64,000 nucleotides of DNA from Candidatus Micrarchaeia archaeon (GTDB lineage: Archaea > Micrarchaeota > Micrarchaeia > Micrarchaeales > CABMGC01), in NCBI GenBank assembly GCA_049976305.1, contig JBMFIM010000001.1:25712-89711 (forward strand). The letters are read 5' to 3'. The position numbers were made by a program, and so were the translations under genes. Shown here one piece after another: positions 1,082 through 55,622 of this stretch (its first letter is position 1; the number at the start of each line of letters is the position of its first letter). The notes under the pieces were generated by a model, which saw only the letters and a program-made list of their open reading frames with translations, had not been told where the DNA came from and did not search any database.

Positions 1082-1155
1082 TGGAGCCAGGAAGGGGAGT
1101 CGAACCCCTCTTTGCCGCTCTGCAGGCGGCCGCATAGCCGATCTGCCATCCTGGC
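1082..1155 (-). tRNA. tRNA-Cys (GCA), CCA encoded
   Basis: Minus strand folds as GCCAGGA-TG-GCA-GATCGGCTA-TGC-G-GCCGC-CTGCAGA-GCGGC-AAAG-AGGGG-TTCGACT-CCCCT-TCCTGGC-T-CCA. It has a 7-bp acceptor stem, anticodon GCA, U73 discriminator and a genomic CCA. Confidence 0.9.
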
Positions 1156-25729: not shown

Positions 25730-27262
25730 TGTATGCAAGACTTAAAATGGTTTTCTAAATTCACAAAACAGACGCTTAGTTCAGAAGAAATGAAAGTAGT
25801 GGAACTTAATGCTGAGAATCTGGGAATTACTGAGTTGCAAATGATGGAAAGCGCAGGCAAAGCAGTGGCAGACTTCGTAGAACAGCATTTTAAAGACAGG
25901 AAAAACCTACTTGTGCTATGCGGCAGCGGCAATAATGGTGGCGATGGCTTTGTAACTGCGAGATACCTTAGCAAAAACCATAATGTTGTAGTTGGGATCG
26001 CTGGTGGTAGGGAGAAGATAAAAGGGGCTTCTTCCCTTATAAACCTGAAAGCGCTCGAAGCTTGCGGAGTGGAACTAGTAGAAAATGTAGAATATGAACT
26101 TAGAACGCGGCTTGACCATGCAGACTTAGTAGTTGACGCTTTGGTAGGGACAGGATTCCACGGTTCGCTGAGAAGCCCTCTAAAAGAGATAGCTAGAATG
26201 TTAAACAATTCGAAAAAAGAGGTAGTGGCGATAGACCTTCCATCTGGGCTCGACGCCACAACTGGATATGAGAAAGAAGCGGTAAAGGCTACATATACAG
26301 TAACATTCCATAAAATGAAAGAAGGCCTGCTAAAATCTAAAAAGGCAGGGAAGATTGTTTGCTCAGATATAGGAATACCGCTAAAGGCTGAAGTTTTTAC
26401 CGGACCTGGAGATCTGTGGAGGGCAGTACCAAAGAAAGAGCTGTTTGATAATAAACTTAGCCATGGACGAGTCCTAATATTAGGAGGCAGTGAAGAGTTT
26501 TACGGCGCGCCTTCAATGGCTGCGATTGCTGCGTACAACGCGCTTGCTACTTTAAGGTCTGGTGCTGGCTATGTCGTATTAATGGTACCTAACTCTATTC
26601 TGAAAGTTGCTAGAGAAGTGTCTCCCAACTTAATAGTAAGAGCTGCAGGAGAAGACTATATTACAAACCTAAAAGCCATAAAACAAGAGATAGACAAAAG
26701 CAGCGTAATAGGAATTGGAATGGGAATAGGGCGTAGCATAGAGGTTCTTGAAGCCACAAAAGAAATCATAAAATACGCACTTGATAAAAACAAAAGGCTT
26801 GTAATAGATGCGGATGCACTCTACGCCTTGGGAAGAAGCCCCTTAAACAAGAATGCCGTACTCACTCCTCAGGAAAAGGAGTTTGAAACTCTTTATGGAA
26901 GAAAGCCTGAGGCAGAGATTGATAAAAGGGTAAGACAAGCAATCAAACTTGCCAACACATTAAATGCAGTAGTTGCATTGAAGGGTCATATTACTGTAAT
27001 AACCGATGGAAAGCAAGTAAAGCTTAATGAGACAGAAACTGCTGCACTGGCGACCATGGGAACCGGAGATGTGTTAACAGGTATTATTGCAGGTTTTGCA
27101 ACTAATAACGCTCAATCAATGTTCAACATTACAGCAGGAGCCATATATCTCCATGGAAGAATTGGAGATGTATTAGCAAAAGAGAAAGGGACGCACATAC
27201 TAGCTAGTGATCTTATAGATCAAATTCCACTCATAGCTGCGCAATATAGTGCTGTGGTTTGA
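25730..27262 (+). CDS. nnr: Bifunctional NAD(P)H-hydrate repair enzyme Nnr (YjeF_N epimerase + ADP-dependent dehydratase)
   Basis: The N-domain has LMESAG..CGSGNNGGDGFV. The C-domain has GGSEEFYGAP...GTGDVLTGIIAGF. The ORF opens at 25709, and ATG 25730 fits the TATA spacing. Confidence 0.9.
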   Translation, partial: CMQDLKWFSKFTKQTLSSEEMKVVELNAENLGITELQMMESAGKAVADFVEQHFKDRKNLLVLCGSGNNGGDGFVTARYLSKNHNVVVGIAGGREKIKGASSLINLKALEACGVELVENVEYELRTRLDHADLVVDALVGTGFHGSLRSPLKEIARMLNNSKKEVVAIDLPSGLDATTGYEKEAVKATYTVTFHKMKEGLLKSKKAGKIVCSDIGIPLKAEVFTGPGDLWRAVPKKELFDNKLSHGRVLILGGSEEFYGAPSMAAIAAYNALATLRSGAGYVVLMVPNSILKVAREVSPNLIVRAAGEDYITNLKAIKQEIDKSSVIGIGMGIGRSIEVLEATKEIIKYALDKNKRLVIDADALYALGRSPLNKNAVLTPQEKEFETLYGRKPEAEIDKRVRQAIKLANTLNAVVALKGHITVITDGKQVKLNETETAALATMGTGDVLTGIIAGFATNNAQSMFNITAGAIYLHGRIGDVLAKEKGTHILASDLIDQIPLIAAQYSAVV

Positions 27263-29148
27263 TGACTGCCCCTATTGCTTTAATGAAAACAGCATTCGTT
27301 GCGAGTCTAAAGAAGGCAATAGAAACTGCATTCAAAAGTCTTGAGGTAGAAGCGCTTAAAATCGAAGATACAATACTTATACCTGAAGAGGGATTCGGTG
27401 ATTTGAGCACATCTGTGTCTTTTAAGATTAGCAAAATAGTAAAAAGAAAACCCAGTGAGATAGCTAAAGAGATTATTGAAAAAATGGGAAAGCCTTCTTT
27501 CGCTAGTAAGCTAGAAGAAGCAAATGGTTACATAAACCTGTTTTTCAATGAAAGAGAGTATGCAAAGCTAGTCATAGAAACAGTAATTGAAGAAGGCGAT
27601 TTTTATGGCTCTGCTAACATAGGAGAAGACAAAAAGGTGCTTGTTGAGTATCCAAGTGTCAACCCAACAAAGCCTTGGCATATAGGCCACCTTAGAAATG
27701 CTCTCCTTGGCGATTCGATTGCTAACTTGCTAGAATTTTGCGGCTACAAGGTAGAAAGAGAAGACTATATAGACGACTTAGGCTTGCAAGTAGCTGAAAC
27801 GCTATGGGGAATAAAGCACTTAGGAAGCAGTCCAAAAGGCATGAAGTTTGACAGATTTCTCGGAGAACAGTATGTAGATGTAAATAAGAGGCTTTCAGAA
27901 AACCCAGAAGTTGAAAAGGAAATCGGCGAAATATTAAAGAAGATGGAAGCTGGCAACACCGAAGAGGCTCGAATGGCGAGAGAAGTGTCTGAGAGATGCG
28001 TAAGGGCGCAGTACCAGACCGCATATTCATATGGCCTTTACCATGACGTTCTTATATGGGAAAGCGATATTGTAAAAAGCAAGCTCCTAGATAAAGCCAA
28101 AATACTTGCGCAGGAAAAAGGGGTCATAGAAAACATTAACGAAGGAAAGTACAAGGGCTGCATTGTACTCGATTTGGAAAAGGTGAAAGGCGTTGCAAAG
28201 GAGTTTGAAAACCCGAAAGAAAAATACAAGGTGCTTATCAGAAGCAATGGTGTTGCAACGTACGCAATGAAGGATTTCGCATTCCACTTATGGAAGTTCG
28301 GCGAAATAAAGGCAGAGATAACCTTTGAACTTTTTGACAAACAGCCAAACGGAAAGCAGCTATATAGCAGCTCGCCAAATGGCAAATATATGGAATTTGG
28401 CAATGCAGATATGGTAATAAACATAATTGACAGAAGCCAGAGCCACGAACAGGCTTCAGTAAAGGCGCTGCTATCGCTTGTGGCCAGTGGCAACAAGCAA
28501 CTTATTCACCTTCCATATGGGGTCGTAAGGCTAGCTAGTGGCACATTAAGTGGGAGGCGAGGAGGCTGGCTTGGCGAGCGAGAATATACCGCTGACGAAT
28601 TACTCAAAGAAGCGACAATTAAAACTTTGGAGAAAACAAAAGAAAGCAGTAAGCTTGCACAAGGTGAGGTTGAAAAAACTGCAAAGGAAGTTGCGCTAGC
28701 GGCTATAAAATTTGAGTATTTGCGTGTTTCTCCTGAAAAGGACATTGTGTTCGATTGGGAAAGGGCTCTAAATCTTGAGGCGAATAGTGGGCCATATGTT
28801 CTTTATACTTATGCAAGGGCCAGCAGCATACTGGAAAAGGGCGGCTTTGAGCTAATGCCACCGAATGGAAAGGCTTATGAGTTTCTTACTAGGGAAGAAG
28901 ATTACGAGCTTGTAAAGCATATCGCCGTATTTCCAGAAGTAGTAGAAAGAGCATGCAAGGAATTGAAACCAAACCTTATTACAAACTACCTAATCGATAT
29001 TGCAACAATATTTAGCAAATTCTATGAGAAGATGCCAGTAATCAAGAGCGAAGCCAGGGAGTTAAGGCTCTCACTGGTATATGCAACCAAACAAGTTATA
29101 AAAAACGGCCTTGCCCTTCTCGGAGTACACGCCTTAGAAGCCCTTTAA
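27262..29148 (+). CDS. argS: Arginyl-tRNA synthetase
   Basis: It carries VEYPSVNPTKPWHIGHLRNALLGDSIANLL (HIGH) and an anticodon-binding C-terminus. GTGG + 4 nt precedes the ATG at 27262, which overlaps the nnr stop. Confidence 0.93.
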   Translation: MTAPIALMKTAFVASLKKAIETAFKSLEVEALKIEDTILIPEEGFGDLSTSVSFKISKIVKRKPSEIAKEIIEKMGKPSFASKLEEANGYINLFFNEREYAKLVIETVIEEGDFYGSANIGEDKKVLVEYPSVNPTKPWHIGHLRNALLGDSIANLLEFCGYKVEREDYIDDLGLQVAETLWGIKHLGSSPKGMKFDRFLGEQYVDVNKRLSENPEVEKEIGEILKKMEAGNTEEARMAREVSERCVRAQYQTAYSYGLYHDVLIWESDIVKSKLLDKAKILAQEKGVIENINEGKYKGCIVLDLEKVKGVAKEFENPKEKYKVLIRSNGVATYAMKDFAFHLWKFGEIKAEITFELFDKQPNGKQLYSSSPNGKYMEFGNADMVINIIDRSQSHEQASVKALLSLVASGNKQLIHLPYGVVRLASGTLSGRRGGWLGEREYTADELLKEATIKTLEKTKESSKLAQGEVEKTAKEVALAAIKFEYLRVSPEKDIVFDWERALNLEANSGPYVLYTYARASSILEKGGFELMPPNGKAYEFLTREEDYELVKHIAVFPEVVERACKELKPNLITNYLIDIATIFSKFYEKMPVIKSEARELRLSLVYATKQVIKNGLALLGVHALEAL

Positions 29149-29149
29149 C

Positions 29150-30037
29150 TCACCTTATAAGATCTATTATAAGCAGACCCGAAACAATAAGTATGCCTCC
29201 AAATACTTCAATAGGGTAATAACTACCAAGCAGAATGCTGCCTGCCAAGACTATAAGTACATCTGCGTACTCAAAATCATTAATAAAGTTTCTTTTCACT
29301 ACAGCCTGTTCGGTGTCCTCTGTCCTTAGAAAACTTACTGCAGCAAGCTCTAGTACTGAGCCCCCAACAAACACAATGCCGCTAAGCAGACCTAGAAGAA
29401 GGTACACTACGCTTATGTCTGCAAAGGCAAAAGACGGTGAAAAAAGCAGACCAAATAAAAGCAGAAATACCGGTTCAAACAAAACTTTCGACCCTACAGG
29501 ATATTTATGAATCCTATAATATTGCAAATAATAGCCAACCCCCGCTAGAGTTGCTATAGCTAATGCGAAAGGGATTGCCGAAACTTGGAATACAGAATTT
29601 TCTGTTTCTGCAAAATACGCACCGATACTAACTAAAGTCACACCTATAACTAAGAGGGCAAGAATTTTGGGTCTCATCTTAGTATGGTATCTAAACAAAT
29701 CAATCAACAAAAAGATAAGGGCAGAAATGTCCACTAACGAATACATACTGGCCAAGGTGAACCTTAAGTAGCCCAAGTAGAGAATTAGCACATATAAGAT
29801 GACAGCAAATGAGGCGACACAGCTAAACAGCCAATATTTTGGCACTTTGGGCTTTGTCTTCACCTTTGTAAAATATAAGTAAGAAGGAAGGCTAATAAAC
29901 CCGCCGATAGCAAACAAGATAAGACTGGTGCCGAAATTAATAGCTTTTAAAACCATGAATTCAGTTATTCCTCCAACACCGTAAAGAATAGAGCTAAGAA
30001 CCATATAGTAATAACTTCTTAGTTCAGTGGCGTCCAT
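29150..30037 (-). CDS. Polytopic membrane protein (DMT/EamA-like topology, ~10 TM)
   Basis: The 295 aa are hydrophobic throughout, with a two-fold repeat of 5 TM helices. The family call is weak. Confidence 0.4.
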   Translation of the reverse strand: MDATELRSYYYMVLSSILYGVGGITEFMVLKAINFGTSLILFAIGGFISLPSYLYFTKVKTKPKVPKYWLFSCVASFAVILYVLILYLGYLRFTLASMYSLVDISALIFLLIDLFRYHTKMRPKILALLVIGVTLVSIGAYFAETENSVFQVSAIPFALAIATLAGVGYYLQYYRIHKYPVGSKVLFEPVFLLLFGLLFSPSFAFADISVVYLLLGLLSGIVFVGGSVLELAAVSFLRTEDTEQAVVKRNFINDFEYADVLIVLAGSILLGSYYPIEVFGGILIVSGLLIIDLIR

Positions 30038-30098
30038 CTTTACCTTTACAAATTTACTTTGCTTATGTTTATATACTTTTAATTGTTAAAATACTAAA

Positions 30099-30193
30099 GG
30101 GCCCGTAGCTCAGCTTGGACAGAGCGGCGCCGTCCTAAGGCGAAGGCCGTGGGTTCAAAATAAGCTTGGCTTATGACAATCCCACCGGGCCCG
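30099..30193 (+). tRNA. tRNA-Arg (CCU) with a 20-nt intron in the T-loop (59/60; intron 30160..30179)
   Basis: It folds as GGGCCCG-TA-GCTC-AGCTTGGACA-GAGC-G-GCGCC-GTCCTAA-GGCGA-AGGCC-GTGGG-TTCAAA[ATAAGCTTGGCTTATGACAA]T-CCCAC-CGGGCCC-G. Removing 20 nt gives a standard 75-nt cloverleaf. The insert folds as a bulge-helix-bulge (see finding). Position 32 is G and 27:43 is G.A. Confidence 0.8.
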
Positions 30194-30204
30194 ATGGCGA
30201 TAAG

Positions 30205-31218
30205 ATGACAAAAGCCGAAGAACCTAAAGAACCTAAGGTAGTAGTAAAGCCTGTAGGCGGGCTTGGCGGCTTAGACCAGATTCACGTAGCGTTAATAATA
30301 CTAGTTTGTGTGCTAGTGGCGCTTGTTGTTGTGCTGGCATACTACAGGCCTACAGCAATTACTGTAGTAAACAACACTACAGCAGCTAAACCCATGCACA
30401 CTTCCTCGGAAATGCTAAATCTTACAGAAAGGTTGCTTGCAAGCTATAACAATCTCAACTCCTCACTAAACCTTCTGCCGTATATAACCAACATCAGCGC
30501 TGCTAACATAACCTACATATCGAGCATTAAATCGTGGCTCATAAGGGTTCCTGCAGCAAATCCAGCAACAAACGTTTCTTTCTACGTTACCTTTTTGATA
30601 AATGACTCCAATACATCAAAAGTGCTGCCACTTATACAGACGGTGCTGCCCGCAAAACTTTCACAAAACAAAGTAGTGGCAAAGGGAGTGGTTCAATTAT
30701 ACAACCATTATCCGTGCAACAAGCAGCCTATGCCGGTTTATTGGTTTATAGATCCATATGCACCCGGTGGCATAAAGAGCTTAAACTATGCAGTACAACT
30801 GCAGAATATGCTAAAGGGCAAAGTCAATGTGACAATAAAGATATTCAGCACGCAGGCGACACAGGCAATAGCAAGCCAGTATGGCATAGCAAATGCGCAG
30901 CTTCTAGGCAAGTACATATTCTGTGCTTCGCTTCAGCCAAATTTTGAAAAGTTTGCAAACATTTTGAGCTCTCTGTTTGCAGGCTCTTTCATGGGCCAGA
31001 TAGAGCTCAGCAACATAGCCAACGAATCTGGGCTCAATTATTCTGAATTAAGCTCTTGTATAGGCACCTCTCAACCAATAATCAACAATCAGGCTCTTCT
31101 AGCAAGCTACTACAACATTACTCAAGTGCCAAGCGTTATCGTTGACTGCAACCTTATGACTTTGCCTCAGACCGCTTACGATGCTGTCTGCTTTGCAAAT
31201 AGCACACTTTGCAGGTGA
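30205..31218 (+). CDS. Membrane-anchored extracellular DsbA/thioredoxin-like-fold protein lacking the CxxC site
   Basis: The track start TTG 30166 overlaps the tRNA, so I use ATG 30205 (MTKAEEPKEPK). One TM helix is followed by about 12 sequons. MPVYWFIDPYAPGG...GKYIFCASLQ...NITQVPSVIV follows the DsbA-like (Thioredoxin_4) pattern, with APGG where CPxC is expected. Confidence 0.45.
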   Translation: MTKAEEPKEPKVVVKPVGGLGGLDQIHVALIILVCVLVALVVVLAYYRPTAITVVNNTTAAKPMHTSSEMLNLTERLLASYNNLNSSLNLLPYITNISAANITYISSIKSWLIRVPAANPATNVSFYVTFLINDSNTSKVLPLIQTVLPAKLSQNKVVAKGVVQLYNHYPCNKQPMPVYWFIDPYAPGGIKSLNYAVQLQNMLKGKVNVTIKIFSTQATQAIASQYGIANAQLLGKYIFCASLQPNFEKFANILSSLFAGSFMGQIELSNIANESGLNYSELSSCIGTSQPIINNQALLASYYNITQVPSVIVDCNLMTLPQTAYDAVCFANSTLCR

Positions 31219-31222
31219 ATTC

Positions 31223-31693
31223 ATACACATCATTGTAGGAATAGATGGCGGTAAGACTGCTGCGATAGCGTGCATAGACTTATACGGCAGGCCAATCAGG
31301 CTTTTCACAGGAAGATATGTGGGCTTGAGCTGGTTCGTCAATATGATAAGAGAGGTTGGCGAGCCGGTAATAATAGCGAGCGACAAAAAGAAGCCGGATG
31401 AAATTGTAAAGAAGCTTGGTGCTGTTTTTGGAGCTGTGGTATTTTCACCTCAAGAGGATCTTACAGTAGATAAGAAGGAGGAACTGGCTAATCACGCATT
31501 TGAAAACCTTCATGAAAGAGATGCCCTTGCCGCAGCTAAGGCCGCTTACAATGCATATGCTAACAAGCTAAAGCAGGCAAGCAAGAAAGCAATAGAACAT
31601 GGCATTGAAGCGGATAAGGCAATGACTTTGGTGATTGAGCGATACTCAATGCACGAAGCAATTACCGGGAAAAAGGCAAACAGGAAAAAATAG
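31223..31693 (+). CDS. DUF460 / COG2433 RNase H-fold (RuvC/YqgF-like) putative nuclease, short form
   Basis: It carries HIIVGIDGGKTAAIACIDLYGRP...VIIASDKKKP...HERDALAAAKAAY. The track start ATG 31181 adds 14 aa and overlaps the upstream gene by 38 nt. AGGTGA + 4 nt precedes the in-frame ATA at 31223 (see finding). Confidence 0.6.
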   Translation: MHIIVGIDGGKTAAIACIDLYGRPIRLFTGRYVGLSWFVNMIREVGEPVIIASDKKKPDEIVKKLGAVFGAVVFSPQEDLTVDKKEELANHAFENLHERDALAAAKAAYNAYANKLKQASKKAIEHGIEADKAMTLVIERYSMHEAITGKKANRKK

Positions 31694-32314
31694 TCACGGT
31701 GGAGCCTGCAGATGGCCTATGATACTTGAAAGACCGACGAAAAGCGCAGCGATGACCACAAGCGCCAAGACAACGCCAAGGAGATAGTATAGTGCTTTGC
31801 CGCTTCCTTTAGGGCTCAAGTAAACCACAGGCGACAGGATTGCTGAGATTGCTGAGAGAAGGAAGAAGCTTAGGGCTGGCAGAAGGTAAACGCCCTTTTC
31901 TAAGCCGAATGCCACCATGCCATAGCTCTCTGCGAACAGGTATATGCCTAGAAGAAAGCCTAGTAAAGATATAGGCCTTACATCAAAGTTTTCATGAAGT
32001 GCATAGGCGCCTGCAAGCATTATTATTCCCAAAATCAGCATTGGGTCTCCAAAAAGCATGTTATAGGCGCCGGGCAATGGCCAGAAGAAGCTCAAGTAAA
32101 AGCCGCTTAGAAAGTCAAAGGCACCAAGGGTGAACATTACAGGAGCAAGAATGGCAAGATTTCTCTTGCCCTTGGCAAGCCCGAATACTGCATAAGCCAA
32201 AAATGCTGCGCTGGCAGAGGCTCCCAAAAGCATTACGGCAAGTGGTCTACAAACATAGCACCACAATCTGATTGAAAAGAAAAAGTTTATAAGAATGCTA
32301 GCCAAAAGAAGCAT
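31694..32314 (-). CDS. Polytopic membrane protein (possibly DUF981-like)
   Basis: The 206 aa include about 6 TM helices and the motif FFWPLPGAYNMLFGDP. The family assignment is tentative. Confidence 0.4.
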   Translation of the reverse strand: MLLLASILINFFFSIRLWCYVCRPLAVMLLGASASAAFLAYAVFGLAKGKRNLAILAPVMFTLGAFDFLSGFYLSFFWPLPGAYNMLFGDPMLILGIIMLAGAYALHENFDVRPISLLGFLLGIYLFAESYGMVAFGLEKGVYLLPALSFFLLSAISAILSPVVYLSPKGSGKALYYLLGVVLALVVIAALFVGLSSIIGHLQAPP

Positions 32315-32353
32315 TCAGCAAATTAATTTAAATAAGGCGGGCATCTAAAAATT

Positions 32354-33364
32354 GTGGCAAACCTAAAAATCCTTGAAGGAGTAGACAGCAAACTATCAGA
32401 AGAGCTAAACCTTAGCTATTATTCTAAAACCATCAATCTTCATTTTAAAACTTTTGCTATGTCGGAAGATTACAAAGGCGCTTCGGCTTTGCTCCTATAC
32501 TTTTTTTTAAACGAACAACCAGAAATGCAGAGCGAAAGTAGAATTAACATCCTTGAGTTGGGTGCACACGGCATTTATTTTGAAAGAGGAGTATATAAGT
32601 ATATGAAATTGCTAGATAAACAAAATAAGACAAACTATGCAGAAAGGATAATATACAGGATACTAGACATCTCTAAAGAAGCCATAGAAATTGCTAAAAA
32701 AAGCTATGATCTTGACAGAGATGGGTACTTCCTAACAGAATTCTATTTAGGAAATGCTTTAGATAAAAATTCGGTTCCGCCAGAAAACCATGCTATCATA
32801 ATGAATGAATTGCTTGACGATCTCGGCCACATGGTAGTAAAACGCGATGGAAAAGAGTTGCACGAGGTTATATTTTGTCTAGAGTGTGTAGGCGAGGATG
32901 CATGGCTTACTCCGTGTGAGGAACGACCACTCAAGGGAATACCTAAAAATGATCAGCTACGAATAATGCGAAGGCTAAAAGATGGCTATGCAACAACATA
33001 CTCGCCTCCGATACCTATATTATTTGACAATATAGAAGGAGCTTCGCGGGAACCAACCTTAACGATGGTCCATGATTACTTTATCTATCAGTCAAACTCC
33101 CCTAGGCTAGGCCGAGTATACGGTTCGATAAATTGCAACAACAAAGAACAGGTGAAAATAAACGGCTCTATTCAGATCACATACGACGTAAATTTTGGCG
33201 AACTCATTTACACGATGAAAAAACACGGCTTCGATATAATAGCAACTATGCCAACTGGCGATTTTGTAAAGGGCAATTTTGTCAACGTACCGATAAATAA
33301 AATCAAAAGATTGCTAGAGGACAGAAACAGCTATCTTAACATCGCAGCAGTAAAAAGACCTTAG
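32354..33364 (+). CDS. MidA/NDUFAF7-like (COG1565) putative SAM-dependent methyltransferase, divergent
   Basis: It has a GTG start. INILELGAHG is a degenerate motif I, RILDISKEAI is post-I, IIMNELLDDL resembles aNEffDAlP, and ITYDVNFGEL resembles DiTahVdF. The region is AT-rich relative to its neighbours. Confidence 0.45.
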   Translation: MANLKILEGVDSKLSEELNLSYYSKTINLHFKTFAMSEDYKGASALLLYFFLNEQPEMQSESRINILELGAHGIYFERGVYKYMKLLDKQNKTNYAERIIYRILDISKEAIEIAKKSYDLDRDGYFLTEFYLGNALDKNSVPPENHAIIMNELLDDLGHMVVKRDGKELHEVIFCLECVGEDAWLTPCEERPLKGIPKNDQLRIMRRLKDGYATTYSPPIPILFDNIEGASREPTLTMVHDYFIYQSNSPRLGRVYGSINCNNKEQVKINGSIQITYDVNFGELIYTMKKHGFDIIATMPTGDFVKGNFVNVPINKIKRLLEDRNSYLNIAAVKRP

Positions 33365-33412
33365 TTTTGAGACTGAATAGTTGACTAGAATAGAGATTGA
33401 TACCACGCTCCA

Positions 33413-33892
33413 TTATTTTATTCGGCTCTTTTGGTCTTTCTTTGTCTGCCATTTTCTCATATCGTAAACATATTGAAATTGGGTAGCATCGCCATAGTAA
33501 GATCTTGCCTCCGGACTTATATTTTTATCTTGTTCCCTCTTACGTCTTATTTCGCCCAGCCATTTTTTAAACTCCTCATAAGTTTGATAACGCTCCAATC
33601 TAGGTCCAAATACTGTTATTTCGTTAGGTTCGGCGCCCAGCTTGTTTTTTATATTGTGGTATACCTTATCAGGAATCCCTTCTTTTACATGGGAAAAGTA
33701 CACAAGAACGCATCCGCCAGACTCTTCTACATCAAACCCAAGACCAAAAAAATAAAACCGAAGGCCAAGAGAATAAGCTCCATAGCCATTTTTGCATTTT
33801 GAATCACATATAGAGTCATCAGTTCTAAGTGCTTCAATTACACTTGAATATAGGTCTTTTTTATTTTCCTTGGATGATTTAAAAAAGAGCAC
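33413..33892 (-). CDS. Hypothetical protein
   Basis: This 159-aa ORF has a GTG start 8 nt after the upstream stop. I recognise no motif. It is AT-rich. Confidence 0.4.
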   Translation of the reverse strand: MLFFKSSKENKKDLYSSVIEALRTDDSICDSKCKNGYGAYSLGLRFYFFGLGFDVEESGGCVLVYFSHVKEGIPDKVYHNIKNKLGAEPNEITVFGPRLERYQTYEEFKKWLGEIRRKREQDKNISPEARSYYGDATQFQYVYDMRKWQTKKDQKSRIK

Positions 33893-33900
33893 CTCATTAC

Positions 33901-34266
33901 CTATCTTTTAACTTTTAGTATTATTTGGTCATAGTTTAAGGGAACGTTTAGTTCTAAGGCATCCCTAGCTTCAACCTCCCTGTTACGTATAATCCGTACC
34001 TCCGCTTGCTTTGCCACTGCCACCGTCTTAATTGCATCAGCTATCTCACGCACCTTGTCAACTATTAGAGCGTTGGGAAATATTATATCTGCTTCGTTGT
34101 CAGTTATATAAACCACATCTATGCCAGTGTTTTTGAATGATATCTTGCTTTCTTTATTTTCTATTTCTAATACATAAGATTCGCCAACCTTTCTCTGGAT
34201 TGCTTTTGCTAATGTTTCTACGAACTGTAAATTTCTGCGATGATGCACTACTTGGCCAGAATACAT
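33901..34266 (-). CDS. Hypothetical protein
   Basis: This 121-aa ORF has a TATA-like TTTAAATA about 27 nt upstream of its ATG, suggesting a leaderless transcript. I recognise no motif. Confidence 0.4.
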   Translation of the reverse strand: MYSGQVVHHRRNLQFVETLAKAIQRKVGESYVLEIENKESKISFKNTGIDVVYITDNEADIIFPNALIVDKVREIADAIKTVAVAKQAEVRIIRNREVEARDALELNVPLNYDQIILKVKR

Positions 34267-34288
34267 AAAAATTTTAGAACTGCGATAC

Positions 34289-34296
34289 TATTTAAA
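34289..34296 (-). promoter_or_regulatory. TATA-box-like element for the 34266..33413 two-gene unit
   Basis: The minus strand reads TTTAAATA, centred about 27 nt upstream of the ATG at 34266. Confidence 0.3.
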
Positions 34297-34341
34297 CATT
34301 AGCATTAAAGTTATTAACCTCTATTGTGACATAATTTTTGC

Positions 34342-34458
34342 GCCAGGATGGCGGAATCCGGTAACGCGTACGCCTGGAGGCTCTCCCAGGTAGCGTATGG
34401 CTCTTCCGAGCCTTCTGGGTTCAAAACAGCTTCTGCTGGGAAAATCCCAGTCCTGGCG
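34342..34458 (+). tRNA. tRNA-Ser (GGA), type II, with two introns (12 nt at 37/38, 34380..34391; 19 nt at 59/60, 34426..34444)
   Basis: It folds as GCCAGGA-TG-GCGG-AATCCGGTA-ACGC-G-TACGC-CTGGAG[GCTCTCCCAGGT]A-GCGTA-T-GGCTC-TTCC-GAGCC-TTC-CTGGG-TTCAAA[ACAGCTTCTGCTGGGAAAA]T-CCCAG-TCCTGGC-G. It has a long variable arm, and the mature length is 86 nt. Confidence 0.8.
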
Positions 34459-34491
34459 TTATTTAGATGTTTTATAGGAAAAGGGATACGC

Positions 34492-34827
34492 ATGGAATCT
34501 AAAATAATAGCGGCGACAATAGATGACAGTTCGATGTTAACCGGAATAGGAAGGGCGCAAAGGATTGCAATAATTGAGGTTAAAGAAGGCAAAATAGCAA
34601 AAATCGAGGAGTTCGAAGTAAAATGGGACGAGGCCCATGAGAAAGAAGAAGAGGGTCTTCACCATGCCAACATTGCCAGATTTCTAAGATCGCACAACGT
34701 TACAGACATAATTGCATTCGGAGCAGGGCCTGATATGCAGCGCATGATAGAAAGGCTTGGCATCAGGCTTCATTTCTCTTCTGGAGATTATCAAGAAGCT
34801 GCAAAAAGGCTTATAGAAAGTGCCTAA
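34492..34827 (+). CDS. NifX/NifB-C-terminal-like (dinitrogenase FeMo-cofactor biosynthesis domain) protein
   Basis: The sequence is MESKIIAATIDDSSMLTGIGRAQRIAIIEV...VTDIIAFGAGPDMQRMIERLGIRL. The track ORF start at 34348 lies inside the tRNA and was rejected. Confidence 0.55.
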   Translation: MESKIIAATIDDSSMLTGIGRAQRIAIIEVKEGKIAKIEEFEVKWDEAHEKEEEGLHHANIARFLRSHNVTDIIAFGAGPDMQRMIERLGIRLHFSSGDYQEAAKRLIESA

Positions 34828-34828
34828 C

Positions 34829-35224
34829 CTAATCGGGCTCGAACTTGTATTGGTAATAAATAAGGCCTTCGTCTCCTTCTTTGTATATGCGCCTTAGCAC
34901 CGCCCTTACCCTTGTGCCAATCTGCACTGGCTTGCCATTGTCAACAATATGCCCTTCCACGATCGGTCCTTCGTCTAGCTTTATCAGCGCAACGGTGTAT
35001 GGAGCTAAGTCCTCAAAGCCGTCTGGAGGCGAGCGAATTATTGTATATGAGTAAATTTCGCCAGTTCCTTTGAACCTTAGGTCTTTCATCTTTGAGTTTC
35101 TGCCGCAATTCCTGCACACTAGCCTTGGCGGAAAGTATTTTGCCCCGCAATTTTCGCACATATTGCCCAGGAGTATGTACCTAGACCTTACTTTTCTCCA
35201 CAAATCAGCAGGAGACTTTTCCAT
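34829..35224 (-). CDS. DUF35 OB-fold/zinc-ribbon protein (scaffold of the archaeal thiolase/HMG-CoA synthase complex)
   Basis: It has CENCGAKYFPPRLVCRNCGR and an OB-fold C-terminus. AGTGG + TTTT precedes the ATG. Confidence 0.85.
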   Translation of the reverse strand: MEKSPADLWRKVRSRYILLGNMCENCGAKYFPPRLVCRNCGRNSKMKDLRFKGTGEIYSYTIIRSPPDGFEDLAPYTVALIKLDEGPIVEGHIVDNGKPVQIGTRVRAVLRRIYKEGDEGLIYYQYKFEPD

Positions 35225-35231
35225 AAAACCA

Positions 35232-36395
35232 CTAATTTACGCGCTTAAGTATGTGCACAACGGCAGTTGCACCGCTACCGCCGACGTTGTGTGTGAGCCC
35301 AATTTCTGCGCCATCTACTTGCCTACCTTCAGCCTCTCCCCTTAGCTGCCAAGTAATCTCAACCGCCTGCTTTATTCCTGTAGCACCTACAGGATGCCCG
35401 CAACCTTTAAGTCCGCCGCTGGTGTTGACAGAAACATCGCCGTTTATTGCGGTTCTGCCTTCTTCTATGGCTTTTGCCGCCTCGCCTTTTTTGAAAAAGC
35501 CTAGGTCTTCCATTGCAATTATCTCCGCTATAGTAAAACAGTCATGAACCTCTGCCACGTCTATGTCCTTTGGCGTTACCTTTGCATGCTCATACGCCTT
35601 CTGGCTTGCGATCCTTGCTGCCTTTATGCTGGTAAGGCTCTCTCTGTCTGCCAGCCTCAGGGTATCGCTTGCCTGCTCGCTTGCTGCTATCAGTACCGGC
35701 GTATCGTTGTATTTCTTTGCAACCTCCATCGGAGCCAGCACTATTGCGGCTGCACCATCGGTAATTGGCGAGCAGTCAAGAAGTTTCAGAGGGTCTGCAA
35801 CCATCTTTGAATTGAGCACATCATCTATCGTTATGCGCCTGTGGAACTGGGCGTATTTGTTGTGGTAGGCGTTTTCATGATTCTTTACTGCTACTGCTGC
35901 CATTTGCTCCTCAGTAGTACCGTATTCGTGCATATGCCGCCTTGCCATGAGGGCATACAGGCCTGGGAATGTTAGACCTTGGAAGAGCTCCCATTCTTGA
36001 TCCCCAGCTCCGCCTAGTGCAGTTGTGGCTTCGCCTGTGCTTACATCTGTCATTTTCTCAACTCCGCCTACAACCACTATGTCATGGAGGCCGCTGGCGA
36101 CCGCCATGTAGCCTTGCCTGAGTGCCGTACCGCCGCTGGCACACGCATTCTCAACACGCGTAGCAGGTATGTTGCCAAGGCCGAGCTGATCAGCCATAAG
36201 CGCTGCAACGTGCTCTTGACCTATGAATCTGCCTGGTGTCATACTGCCACCATAGATGGCATCAATATCCTTGCTGGATATGCCTGCATCTTCCAAGGCT
36301 GCAAGTCCGGCTTCAGCCATAAGCTCCTTTATTCCTGATTCCCATCTTTCACCAAACTTTGTAAGACCAACGCCTATAATTGCCACATCTCTCAT
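35232..36395 (-). CDS. Acetyl-CoA acetyltransferase (thiolase)
   Basis: [11 protein letters not shown] contains the active-site Cys. The C-terminus has [24 protein letters not shown]. Confidence 0.92.
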
Positions 36396-36399
36396 AGCA

Positions 36400-37446
36400 T
36401 CACCGTTCTATACTCCCCCTGTTTCGCAAATAGGTAGCGTAGTCCACATAAATCTTGCCTTCGCTTATCATCTTCTCCACAGCTTCTATTGCGTATCTTT
36501 TCTCTTCTATTGGCTCCTTGACTTCCAGCGCGAAGGAATCGCTGCCTGCCCCAGAGCCGAAGCTTGTAACCATTATCTTCTCTCCAGGCTTAGCAACATC
36601 AAGCGTGGCTGCAAGGCCGAGCATGGAAGCGCCAGAGTAGGTATTGCCTATTCTCGGCGTAAGCAAACCATACTTTATTTGTTCCTCGCTAAACCCGAGC
36701 TGCTTTGCAACCTGCATAGGAAACTTTCCGTTAGGCTGGTGAAAAACAGCGTAGGCAAAGTCGCTAGGCTTAAGCCCTGTTTCTTCCAAAAGCTTATGGG
36801 TTGCATTTATTATGTGCTTGAAATATGCCGGCTCGCCAGTAAACCTGCCGCCGTGTGAAGGGTATCTTGCCCCTTCCCTTCTCCAAAAGTCGGGCGTGTC
36901 TGTCACATAGCTAACTGTTTTTATTATCTCAGCTATTATCTCCTTCTTTTCTTTTCCTATGATGAATGCGGCGCCCCCGGCGCTTGCTGTGTACTCTAGT
37001 GCGTCACCGGGTCTGCCTTGCGAAGTATCAGAACCTATGGCCATTCCATATTCTATCATGCCGCTGAGCACCTCAGCAGCAATTATCTGCATGCCGTCTG
37101 TGCCTGCCTTGCATGCAAACTCCAAGTCAGAAGCCATGGCATAAGGGCTTGCATCTATTGCTTCTGCCACTATACTTGCAGTAGGCTTGACAGCGTAAGG
37201 CGGAGATTCAGAGCCGACATAGATGGCGCCTATTTTGCTGGCATCAATACCAGCATGCTTTATCGCCCTCCTTGCCGCCTCTACTGCTATAGTTGCTGAG
37301 TCCTCGTCTATTCCGGGCACGCTTTTCTCAAATATGTTAAGTCCGGATTTTATCGACTCTGCATCTTCTCCCCACACTCTCGCTATCTCCTCTACCTTTA
37401 TCCTGTACTTAGGCACATACGCCCCATACCCAACAATGCCTACCAA
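36400..37446 (-). CDS. Hydroxymethylglutaryl-CoA synthase (archaeal)
   Basis: It carries [25 protein letters not shown]...[35 protein letters not shown] + 4 nt precedes the TTG at 37446, while the ORF opens at 37512 inside the upstream gene. Confidence 0.92.
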
Positions 37447-37450
37447 GCAA

Positions 37451-38311
37451 TCACCTATATTCCTCAAGAAGCTGCAGCACTTGCTCCTTCGTATGCTGAG
37501 GCTGCTTGGCAAGGCTGCCTTTCTTCAGAGTTATATCAAGCTCATTGTATGTTGGCCTCTCTACCTTATAGAACAGGCCAATTGGTATTTTGCTCCAGTT
37601 GCTTCTCTCAGCCTCTGTTGCAAGATTAAACGCTGAGGCCAAGTCAGAGGTGTTGTTTCCTTGGAGCTTGTATATGCGCTGCCTGAACCAGTCGTAGGTG
37701 TTTAGCGTGTTAAAGCTTACGCAAGGGCTGAACACATCGATCAAGGCAAAGCCTTTATGCACTATGCCTTCTTTTATCAATTCGCTAAGGTGCGCAGGGT
37801 CTCCAGAAAAACCTCTTGCAACAAAGGTTGCGCCAGATGCAAGCGCTAGCGCAAGCGGGTTGACAGGATCTTCGATGTCACCGAAAGGCGTAGACTTAGT
37901 TTTGGCGCCGACAAGGCTCGTGGGAGAAGCTTGGCCAGTGGTTAGGCCGTATATCTGGTTGTTCATTACTATGTAGGCAATGTCTATGTTCCTCCTTGCT
38001 GCATGGATAAGATGGGCTACACCTATGCCATAAGCGTCACCATCGCCTGCAGTGCCTATTACCTCTAGATCACTGTTTGCAAGCTTTACGCCTGTAGCAA
38101 CTGGCAATACTCTGCCGTGTATACTGTGTATGCCGTATGTGCTGAATACATGTGGCATTGCAGAGCTGCAGCCTATTCCAGATACCATAACCACTTTGCT
38201 CTTGTCTATTTGGAGCTCGTTCAAAGCCCTCAGAATGCCTGCCTGAACTCCATAATCGCCACATCCGGGGCACCATACCGGCTTTACGCCAGATGTATAG
38301 ATTTGTGCCAT
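37451..38311 (-). CDS. 2-oxoacid:ferredoxin oxidoreductase, beta (TPP-binding) subunit
   Basis: It carries WCPGCGDYG and GIGCSS...[15 protein letters not shown] + 4 nt precedes the ATG. Confidence 0.92.
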
Positions 38312-54155: not shown

Positions 54156-54254
54156 GCGGGGGTGGCAGAGCTTGGCCAAATGCGCAGGACTGAGGTCTTG
54201 CCGCAGAACTCCTGTGGTTTAGAACCTGCGTGAGTTCAAATCTCACCCCCCGCA
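54156..54254 (+). tRNA. tRNA-Leu (GAG), type II, with 13-nt intron at 37/38 (54196..54208)
   Basis: It folds as GCGGGGG-TG-GCA-GAGCTTGGCCAAA-TGC-G-CAGGA-CTGAGG[TCTTGCCGCAGAA]C-TCCTG-T-GGTT-TAG-AACC-TGC-GTGAG-TTCAAAT-CTCAC-CCCCCGC-A. Its first base directly follows the rpoD stop codon. Confidence 0.85.
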
Positions 54255-55528: not shown

Positions 55529-55614
55529 GGGGTCGTCTGCTAGCCTGGTAGGCTCTGCGCTTAGGGAGCGCATGACCCGAGAAAAATTCGGGAATTCAAA
55601 TCTCGGCGACCCCG
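55529..55614 (+). tRNA. tRNA-Pro with A34 anticodon (AGG) and a 13-nt intron at 53/54 (55582..55594)
   Basis: It folds as GGGGTCG-TC-TGCT-AGCCTGGTA-GGCT-C-TGCGC-TTAGGGA-GCGCA-TGAC-CCGAG[AAAAATTCGGGAA]TTCAAAT-CTCGG-CGACCCC-G. The D-stem has a U10.U25 mismatch, and G37 is present as in Pro tRNAs. The mature length is 73 nt. Confidence 0.65.
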
Positions 55615-55622
55615 GTGATTTA

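Follow-up and report, generated by a model that had tools for sequence, protein, structure and literature searches.

In Candidatus Micrarchaeum acidiphilum ARMAN-2, 56% of the transfer RNA (tRNA) genes are disrupted (Fujishima et al., 2011; PMC3239211). Its pre-tRNA-Cys(GCA) contains a 13-nt intron at position 59/60 with a relaxed hBH (helix-bulge-helix) motif, its pre-tRNA-Pro(GGG) has introns at both 53/54 and 59/60, and its three-unit epsilon2 splicing endonuclease, EndA, cleaves a strict 37/38 intron as well as a 59/60 intron in vitro (PMC3239211). Substrates with the 5' splice site in a loop, that is without the inner helix h', need a broad-specificity EndA (PMC3239211), and ARMAN-1 and ARMAN-2 are among the lineages with multiple-intron tRNAs (PMC4033280). 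Transposition of tRNA introns has been described in Thermoproteales (PMC4090602). Here we analysed a 64,000-nt stretch of a Candidatus Micrarchaeia contig (JBMFIM010000001.1, positions 25,712 to 89,711; assembly GCA_049976305.1), referred to below as the window, in which positions 34342..34458 of the plus strand make up a 117-nt tRNA-Ser(GGA) gene with two inserts. We consider it highly probable (about 0.93) that this is a functional Micrarchaeaceae (DPANN) gene interrupted by two introns of the bulge-helix-bulge (BHB) type that would be spliced by proteins. Heavily interrupted tRNA genes, T-loop introns included, have been known for the lineage since 2011 and the tRNA-Ser(GGA) gene is a further example.

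Deletion of 34380..34391 (12 nt) and 34426..34444 (19 nt) left 86 nt that ARAGORN called as tRNA-Ser(GGA). In the ARAGORN fold the spliced product is a class II cloverleaf with a 7-bp acceptor stem (GCCAGGA/TCCTGGC), a 3-bp D stem, an anticodon stem UACGC/GCGUA with the loop CUGGAGA, a 5-bp variable arm (GGCTC/GAGCC, loop TTCC) and a T arm CUGGG-UUCAAAU-CCCAG; no CCA is encoded. The long variable arm, the anticodon GGA and the discriminator G73 are those of a class II tRNA-Ser, G73 being a serine identity element in archaea and eukaryotes. Exon 1 (34342..34379) provides the 5' strand of the acceptor, the D arm, the 5' strand of the anticodon stem and loop nucleotides 32-37 (CUGGAG). Exon 2 (34392..34425) runs from A38 through the 3' strand of the anticodon stem, the variable arm GGCTC-TTCC-GAGCC and the 5' strand of the T stem to T-loop nucleotides 54-59 (TTCAAA), and exon 3 (34445..34458) consists of U60, the T-stem strand CCCAG, the acceptor strand TCCTGGC and G73, all on the plus strand. 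A 117-nt tRNA-Ser(GGA) with two introns and this same acceptor, variable arm and T stem had been put forward in an initial annotation of the window; the letters match that description and ARAGORN accepts the 86-nt product. Default ARAGORN, ARAGORN allowing canonical introns and Rfam at gathering thresholds did not call the locus in the window, and a permissive Rfam scan (E<=10) of 28000..38000 also left it unreported. Such misses are expected of default tRNA finders because the gene is doubly interrupted and are not counter-evidence.

Archaeal BHB introns are cut after the second nucleotide of each 3-nt bulge, and both inserts can be placed in this register. Intron 1 (34380..34391, plus strand, 12 nt, GCTCTCCCAGGT) lies at position 37/38. 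Nucleotides 32-35 (CUGG) pair with the intron CCAG at all four positions of the central helix H, the 5' bulge is AG|G and the 3' bulge GU|A sits beside the anticodon stem; the inner helix is absent, so the 5' cut falls within an 8-nt loop. Intron 1 therefore has a relaxed hBH or bulge-helix-loop (BHL) motif, and its earlier description as canonical holds for its position alone. Intron 2 (34426..34444, plus strand, 19 nt, ACAGCTTCTGCTGGGAAAA) lies at 59/60 in the T loop and has a near-strict hBHBh' motif, in which the 5-bp T stem forms the outer helix and H consists of UUCA (54-57) with GGAA, paired at three of four positions (A57.G mismatch). The two bulges of intron 2 read AA|A and AA|U, and its inner hairpin, CAGC-UUCU-GCUG, has a 4-bp inner helix. 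In both introns the junctions lie in 3-nt bulges around a 4-bp helix (intron 2) or in the relaxed motif (intron 1), and the helices, bulges and restored loops (CUGGAGA and TTCAAAT) of the initial annotation all agree with the sequence in this register. The A runs allow four junction registers (56/57 to 59/60) that give the same mature T loop, of which only 59/60 forms a BHB. The introns were also considered as C/D-box small RNAs or coding sequence and dismissed, at lengths of just 12 and 19 nt.

Comparison with relatives provides further evidence. Synteny anchored on the adjoining thiolase gene over 80 Micrarchaeota genomes yielded a single syntenic tRNA-Ser (L001), because synteny is short-range, and close relatives gave two more (L081 and L082). 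These loci were not chosen by tRNA sequence and represent two distinct sequences (L001 = L081); all 86 exon nucleotides (86/86) are identical to those of the window in flanks that are largely different, and every difference within the gene is confined to the two inserts. Among them are changes in the loops, a G-U-preserving change in the intron 1 H helix and a G-to-U replacement by which the A57.G mismatch of the window becomes an A-U pair. Exon 1 is identical also in L111 and L128. A scan of metagenomes with a pattern made of the T arm and acceptor with a 0-30-nt gap in the T loop recovered 14 further interrupted copies and 108 uninterrupted matches. Altogether there are 12 distinct pre-tRNA sequences, from Micrarchaeota assemblies, with inserts at the same two positions, and 12/12 splice in silico to a tRNA-Ser(GGA) called by ARAGORN; the same gene with both inserts is present in independent JGI, NCBI and ENA assemblies.

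Across the 12 variants the exons are almost unchanged. Intron 1 is 11-14 nt long, its loop is free and its inner helix is 0-1 bp in every case, with CCAG, CUAG (one G-U pair) or CCUG (one mismatch) as the intron partner in the H helix. Intron 2 ranges from 16 to 30 nt with the same geometry; the 5' bulge reads AA|A in all variants but one (AA|U), the 3' bulge AA|U or UA|U, and the 3' strand of H is UGAA in 10/12 variants, which gives the full 4 bp with A57-U, A57.G being found in the window and its closest relative. Within intron 2 the inner helix varies and yet stays complementary, as CAGC/GCTG, CAGCT/GGCTG, TGC/GCA and GCGATATG/CATATTGC (in RNA, GCGAUAUG/CAUAUUGC); it was scored in the splice-site-anchored register and excluded from the formal pair count because MAFFT misaligns the length classes. 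For the alignable helices 98.7% of cells are paired, against 25-49% with the partners slid, the two H helices reaching 94% and 96%, and the formal count includes one compensatory A-U to G-C change, in the anticodon stem. In the orthologues the motif is maintained by selection: its structure is kept and its sequence can change. To judge from these orthologues, both tRNA-Ser introns are old and vertically inherited within the clade.

Uninterrupted genes show what the spliced tRNA should look like. ARAGORN called tRNA genes in 104 of the 108 uninterrupted matches, and 99 of the 104 were Ser(GGA), mostly on hypersaline and marine contigs. The spliced product of the window is identical to uninterrupted archaeal tRNA-Ser(GGA) at 72-73 of 86 positions (84%) and aligns without gaps at both junctions; in the window as in the 12 variants, removal of the inserts restores a complete canonical tRNA. 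A covariance model (R1) built from 17 uninterrupted tRNA-Ser(GGA) genes only matched 34342..34438 with 38.5 bits (E ~1e-7), treating intron 1 as an insertion and slipping into the T-loop intron instead of spanning the 19-nt insertion. Taken together, the identical exons, the 12 variants, the covarying inner helix and the uninterrupted Ser genes, as well as an uninterrupted tRNA-Arg discussed below, bear out the proposal that both inserts are introns. Separately, the Ser-derived model R1 scored the tRNA-Cys of the window higher (52.6 bits) than the interrupted tRNA-Ser (38.5 bits). Another side observation is a 114-nt tRNA-Ser(GGA)-like gene on a contig of 37% GC (L124:12946..13059, minus strand, Ga0209542_10012798), whose acceptor is the same and whose T arm is uninterrupted. 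Additional sequence separates its D arm from its anticodon stem, and it carries about 11 nt near 37/38; apparently, the gene is interrupted in a different way in this other low-GC lineage.

A number of results do weigh against a doubly spliced gene. The ViennaRNA prediction includes the acceptor, the variable arm, the T stem, the CUGG/CCAG helix and the intron hairpin; its minimum-free-energy (MFE) fold lacks the weak H helix of intron 2 and favours slipped pairing around intron 1, the full BHB cloverleaf having -46.2 kcal/mol against -52.4 kcal/mol for the MFE fold. Nearest-neighbour rules penalise bulges, so this energy gap is uninformative either way. The metagenome pattern fixed the T arm and the 3' strand of the acceptor, and the invariance of these parts among the metagenome variants is in part selection bias. 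EndA and RtcB were not found among the 30 open reading frames (ORFs) of the window that were scanned.

One alternative explanation for the data is a tRNA pseudogene in decay, in which two insertions have built up and whose transcript would be neither spliced nor put to use. The silence of the standard tRNA finders and the mismatched H helix of the T-loop insert in the window would fit this idea. However, genomes with diverged flanks and intron loops have perfectly matching exons, a promoter-like element is kept, the 12 variants preserve a cleavable geometry at both inserts together with helix covariation, and the mismatch is restricted to the window and its closest relative; we regard a pseudogene as very improbable. 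Another possibility is that the anticodon-loop insert is the sole intron and that the mature RNA keeps the T-loop insert, which would enlarge the T loop or add a hairpin. The thermodynamic fold might suggest this, since it shows the insert as a separate hairpin within a 7x7 internal loop and no stable BHB. Against such retention, the 3-nt/4-bp/3-nt register relative to the T stem is fixed in all variants although the hairpin changes in sequence and in length (16-30 nt), a retained insert would destroy the conserved T54-A58 and T-loop-D-loop architecture of tRNA, and a 59/60 intron is an in vitro substrate of the ARMAN-2 EndA (PMC3239211). We regard a retained insert as very improbable too. The match might finally have arisen by chance or by misassembly. 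Approximately 99,000 BHB-like excisions, 10-110 nt long and taken from both strands, were each removed from the window in silico and the products run through ARAGORN, which is a large number of trials; even so, new tRNAs appeared at exactly four loci (Arg, Ser, Leu and Pro), each a complete cloverleaf. An assembly artefact is effectively refuted by the independent JGI, NCBI and ENA assemblies and by the orthologues, and the probability we attach to chance or artefact is close to nil. A functional tRNA-Ser(GGA) gene with two BHB-type introns remains the reading that we prefer.

We propose that the gene is transcribed alone, from a promoter resembling a B recognition element (BRE) and TATA box approximately 25-31 nt upstream. 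In the precursor, loop nucleotides 32-35 would pair with CCAG of intron 1 to give a relaxed bulge-helix-loop stacked on the anticodon stem, and T-loop nucleotides 54-56 (57) would pair with the 3' part of intron 2, forming a 3-4-3 BHB between the T stem and the small intron hairpin, as the sequence and its orthologues show. By analogy with established archaeal tRNA splicing and with the in vitro work on the ARMAN-2 EndA, the splicing endonuclease would cut after the second bulge nucleotide, at AG|G and GU|A for intron 1 and at AA|A and AA|U for intron 2. A broad-specificity enzyme is called for because intron 1 is relaxed and intron 2 lies in the T loop, and on taxonomy the expected enzyme would be a three-unit epsilon2 EndA as in ARMAN-2; the enzyme type is assumed from the lineage because the scanned ORFs contained neither EndA nor RtcB. 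On the same grounds, an RtcB-type ligase would then join the three exons, and RNase P, 3' trimming and CCA addition would complete the 86-nt class II tRNA.

The host can be assigned to the Micrarchaeaceae, as proteins of Candidatus Micrarchaeia and Micrarchaeaceae metagenome-assembled genomes (MAGs) share 89-99% identity with the adjoining thiolase (35232..36395, minus strand). The 80 genome loci recovered with the thiolase are nearly all from Micrarchaeota or related DPANN, with a few MAGs labelled otherwise, and an identical thiolase, in the same gene neighbourhood, is encoded on JGI 3300039096 Ga0395593_061703 and NCBI GCA_049972015.1. Archaeal genes in the window include those for PCNA, thermosome, TFE-alpha, L10P, FtsZ and arginyl-tRNA synthetase (ArgRS). 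Upstream of the tRNA, a TATA-like TTATTAA (34311..34317, plus strand) lies 31 to 25 nt from the 5' end and is preceded by a purine-rich AAAG, which together form a putative archaeal BRE/TATA promoter; an A/T-rich TATA-like element is found at a similar upstream distance in most of the 12 orthologues despite their diverged flanks. The T-rich trailer TTATTTAGATGTTTTAT (34459..34475, plus strand), read from the sequence, is likely to be an archaeal oligo-T termination signal, and short T runs are found in the trailers of several orthologues too. The next protein gene on the plus strand (34492..34827, ATG at 34492) encodes 111 aa with a Nitro_FeMo-Co domain (PF02579, residues 19-108) and is called by gene callers on the source contigs. 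A longer plus-strand ORF (34348..34827) is an over-extension of this gene, and a minus-strand ORF of 92 aa (34314..34592) is antisense to both the tRNA-Ser and the 111-aa gene. The statement that these two ORFs over the tRNA are artefacts was correct, as the PF02579 domain falls within the 111-aa product that starts at 34492.

The tRNA-Ser gene is one of eight tRNA genes in the window. ARAGORN and Rfam report uninterrupted tRNAs for Cys, Lys, Met and Gln, and the excision scan adds the four interrupted ones, in agreement with the count of four in eight in the initial annotation, which had included a tRNA-Pro with a 53/54 intron and a tRNA-Leu with a 37/38 intron. The tRNA-Leu(GAG) gene (54156..54254, plus strand) has a 13-nt intron (54196..54208) at 37/38 with a relaxed motif and the 3' bulge AA|C. 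The tRNA-Pro(AGG) gene (55529..55615, plus strand) has a 13-nt intron (55582..55594) at 53/54 with a fully paired H helix (CCCG/CGGG, 4/4) and the 3' bulge AA|U. The tRNA-Arg(CCT) gene (30099..30193, plus strand) has a 20-nt intron (30160..30179) at 59/60, in which H (TTCA/TGAC) has three of four pairs, with AA|A and AA|U as bulges and TAAGC-TTG-GCTTA as the inner hairpin. Aligned in the splice-site register, this intron has the same geometry, position and bulges as intron 2 of tRNA-Ser, as had been claimed. The 3' bulge reads AA|N at four of the five intron junctions of the window, the exception being the GU|A of tRNA-Ser intron 1, which is the pattern that had been noted.

Some other features of these tRNAs deserve mention. 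The tRNA-Cys(GCA) gene (1082..1155, minus strand) has the same acceptor stem as tRNA-Ser(GGA), GCCAGGA/TCCTGGC, with U instead of G as the discriminator. The tRNA-Pro gene has the anticodon AGG and a weak D stem, and brings together A34 and a single 53/54 intron in a Micrarchaeaceae genome. Archaeal tRNAs rarely have adenine at the wobble position. Pro(AGG) has been reported in ARMAN-4/5 (Fujishima et al., 2011; PMC3239211). A BHB-excision scan of the 80 thiolase loci recovered few tRNAs of any kind, too few for intron positions to be surveyed across whole genomes; it did return a tRNA-Ala(TGC) with perhaps two long inserts, of about 45 nt in the anticodon region and about 80 nt near the 3' end (L038:2892..3090, plus strand), and a tRNA-Ala with perhaps a 71-nt canonical intron that has an 11-bp inner helix (L031:2725..2887, plus strand). 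These candidates suggest that long tRNA introns also occur in Micrarchaeota.

Orthologues of the interrupted tRNA-Arg(CCT) were recovered upstream of the same 337-aa gene. L209/L210, L211 and L212 retain a 59/60 insert of 20-24 nt, and pairing of the inner helix is kept through its different forms (TAAGC/GCUUA, UAGGC/GCUUA with a G-U pair, UAAGCA/UGCUUA and UAAGU/GCUUA). A more distant member of the Micrarchaeota (L213:1338..1413, JAGWHC010000001.1) has an uninterrupted tRNA-Arg(CCT) with exactly the T loop, UUCAAAU, that excision predicts. With L213 uninterrupted and L209-L212 interrupted, the 59/60 intron of tRNA-Arg is therefore polymorphic within the phylum, which could help to date when it was gained or lost. 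In L211 (L211:1383..1484, JAVYWZ010000003.1) the T stem of tRNA-Arg(CCT) (GCGGG/CCCAC) is mismatched at C50.A64, and the intron is longer, at 24 nt, with a 6-bp inner helix. In the window about 1 kb separates the gene for ArgRS (27259..29148, plus strand) from the interrupted tRNA-Arg(CCT) downstream of it, and the order ArgRS, tRNA-Arg, 337-aa gene is repeated in L212 and L213.

The resemblance between the two 59/60 introns had raised the possibility of a common origin. The T arms of tRNA-Ser(GGA) and tRNA-Arg(CCT) match at 15/17 nt and the introns share an A-...AGC-TT-GCT...-TGA-AA core. When compared directly the introns are identical at 14/20 positions, a level reached by 9% of random introns generated under the same constraints (p ~0.09), and much of this likeness is forced because the T-loop sequence and the bulges are shared. 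A common origin is consequently not supported statistically, and we consider it unlikely that the two introns are copies of one element moved by recombination across near-identical T arms. If they were, the recurrent AA|N 3' bulge would point to sequences preferred by the epsilon2 endonuclease or by the insertion process, intron transposition, on record so far for Thermoproteales, would be extended to DPANN archaea, and the tRNA-Arg polymorphism (L213 against L209-L212) would provide a dated snapshot of gain or loss.

The practical value of these results is for annotation. Half of the tRNA genes of the window escape ARAGORN and Rfam at default settings, so annotations of Micrarchaeota MAGs will under-count tRNAs and place spurious ORFs over them, as was the case in the window. 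The comparative set, made up of 12 Ser variants, four distinct Arg variants that are interrupted and an Arg orthologue that lacks the intron, shows that 59/60 introns have been gained or lost within the phylum and that both Ser introns are old and have been stably inherited, with clean structural covariation. It is useful for studies on the co-evolution of the epsilon2 endonuclease and tRNA gene disruption, and leaves the current picture unchanged.

In a wider comparison, intron 1 resembles the euryarchaeal strict hBHBh' intron at 37/38, which is processed by an alpha4 or alpha'2 EndA, in its position, in the 4-bp helix with nucleotides 32-35 and in the 3-nt 3' bulge cut after its second nucleotide; it differs in having no inner helix h', so that the 5' splice site is in a loop. 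Like this locus, tRNA genes of Thermoproteales and other Crenarchaeota have non-canonical BHB introns, including those in the T loop, with up to three introns per gene, and a broad-specificity EndA removes them, as would be expected here (Sugahara et al., 2007; 2008; PMC4033280; PMC4090602). Their EndA is an (alpha-beta)2 heterotetramer, in contrast to the three-unit epsilon2 enzyme of the Micrarchaeum lineage, and large-scale intron transposition is documented for Thermoproteales (Fujishima, 2010), unlike the Ser/Arg pair here with its 14/20 identities and p ~0.09. We found no prior description of a class II tRNA-Ser with a relaxed 37/38 and a near-strict 59/60 intron, the ARMAN-2 supplementary tRNA table being outside this comparison. 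ARMAN-2 itself is of the same lineage and has the same intron positions (59/60, 53/54 and 37/38), more than one intron per gene and the same mix of strict and relaxed motifs. The gene described here differs from the ARMAN-2 examples in being a class II Ser(GGA) tRNA with the 37/38 and 59/60 combination in a different species, represented by a MAG, and in that the intron at the non-canonical position is the near-strict one, whereas the intron at the canonical position is relaxed.

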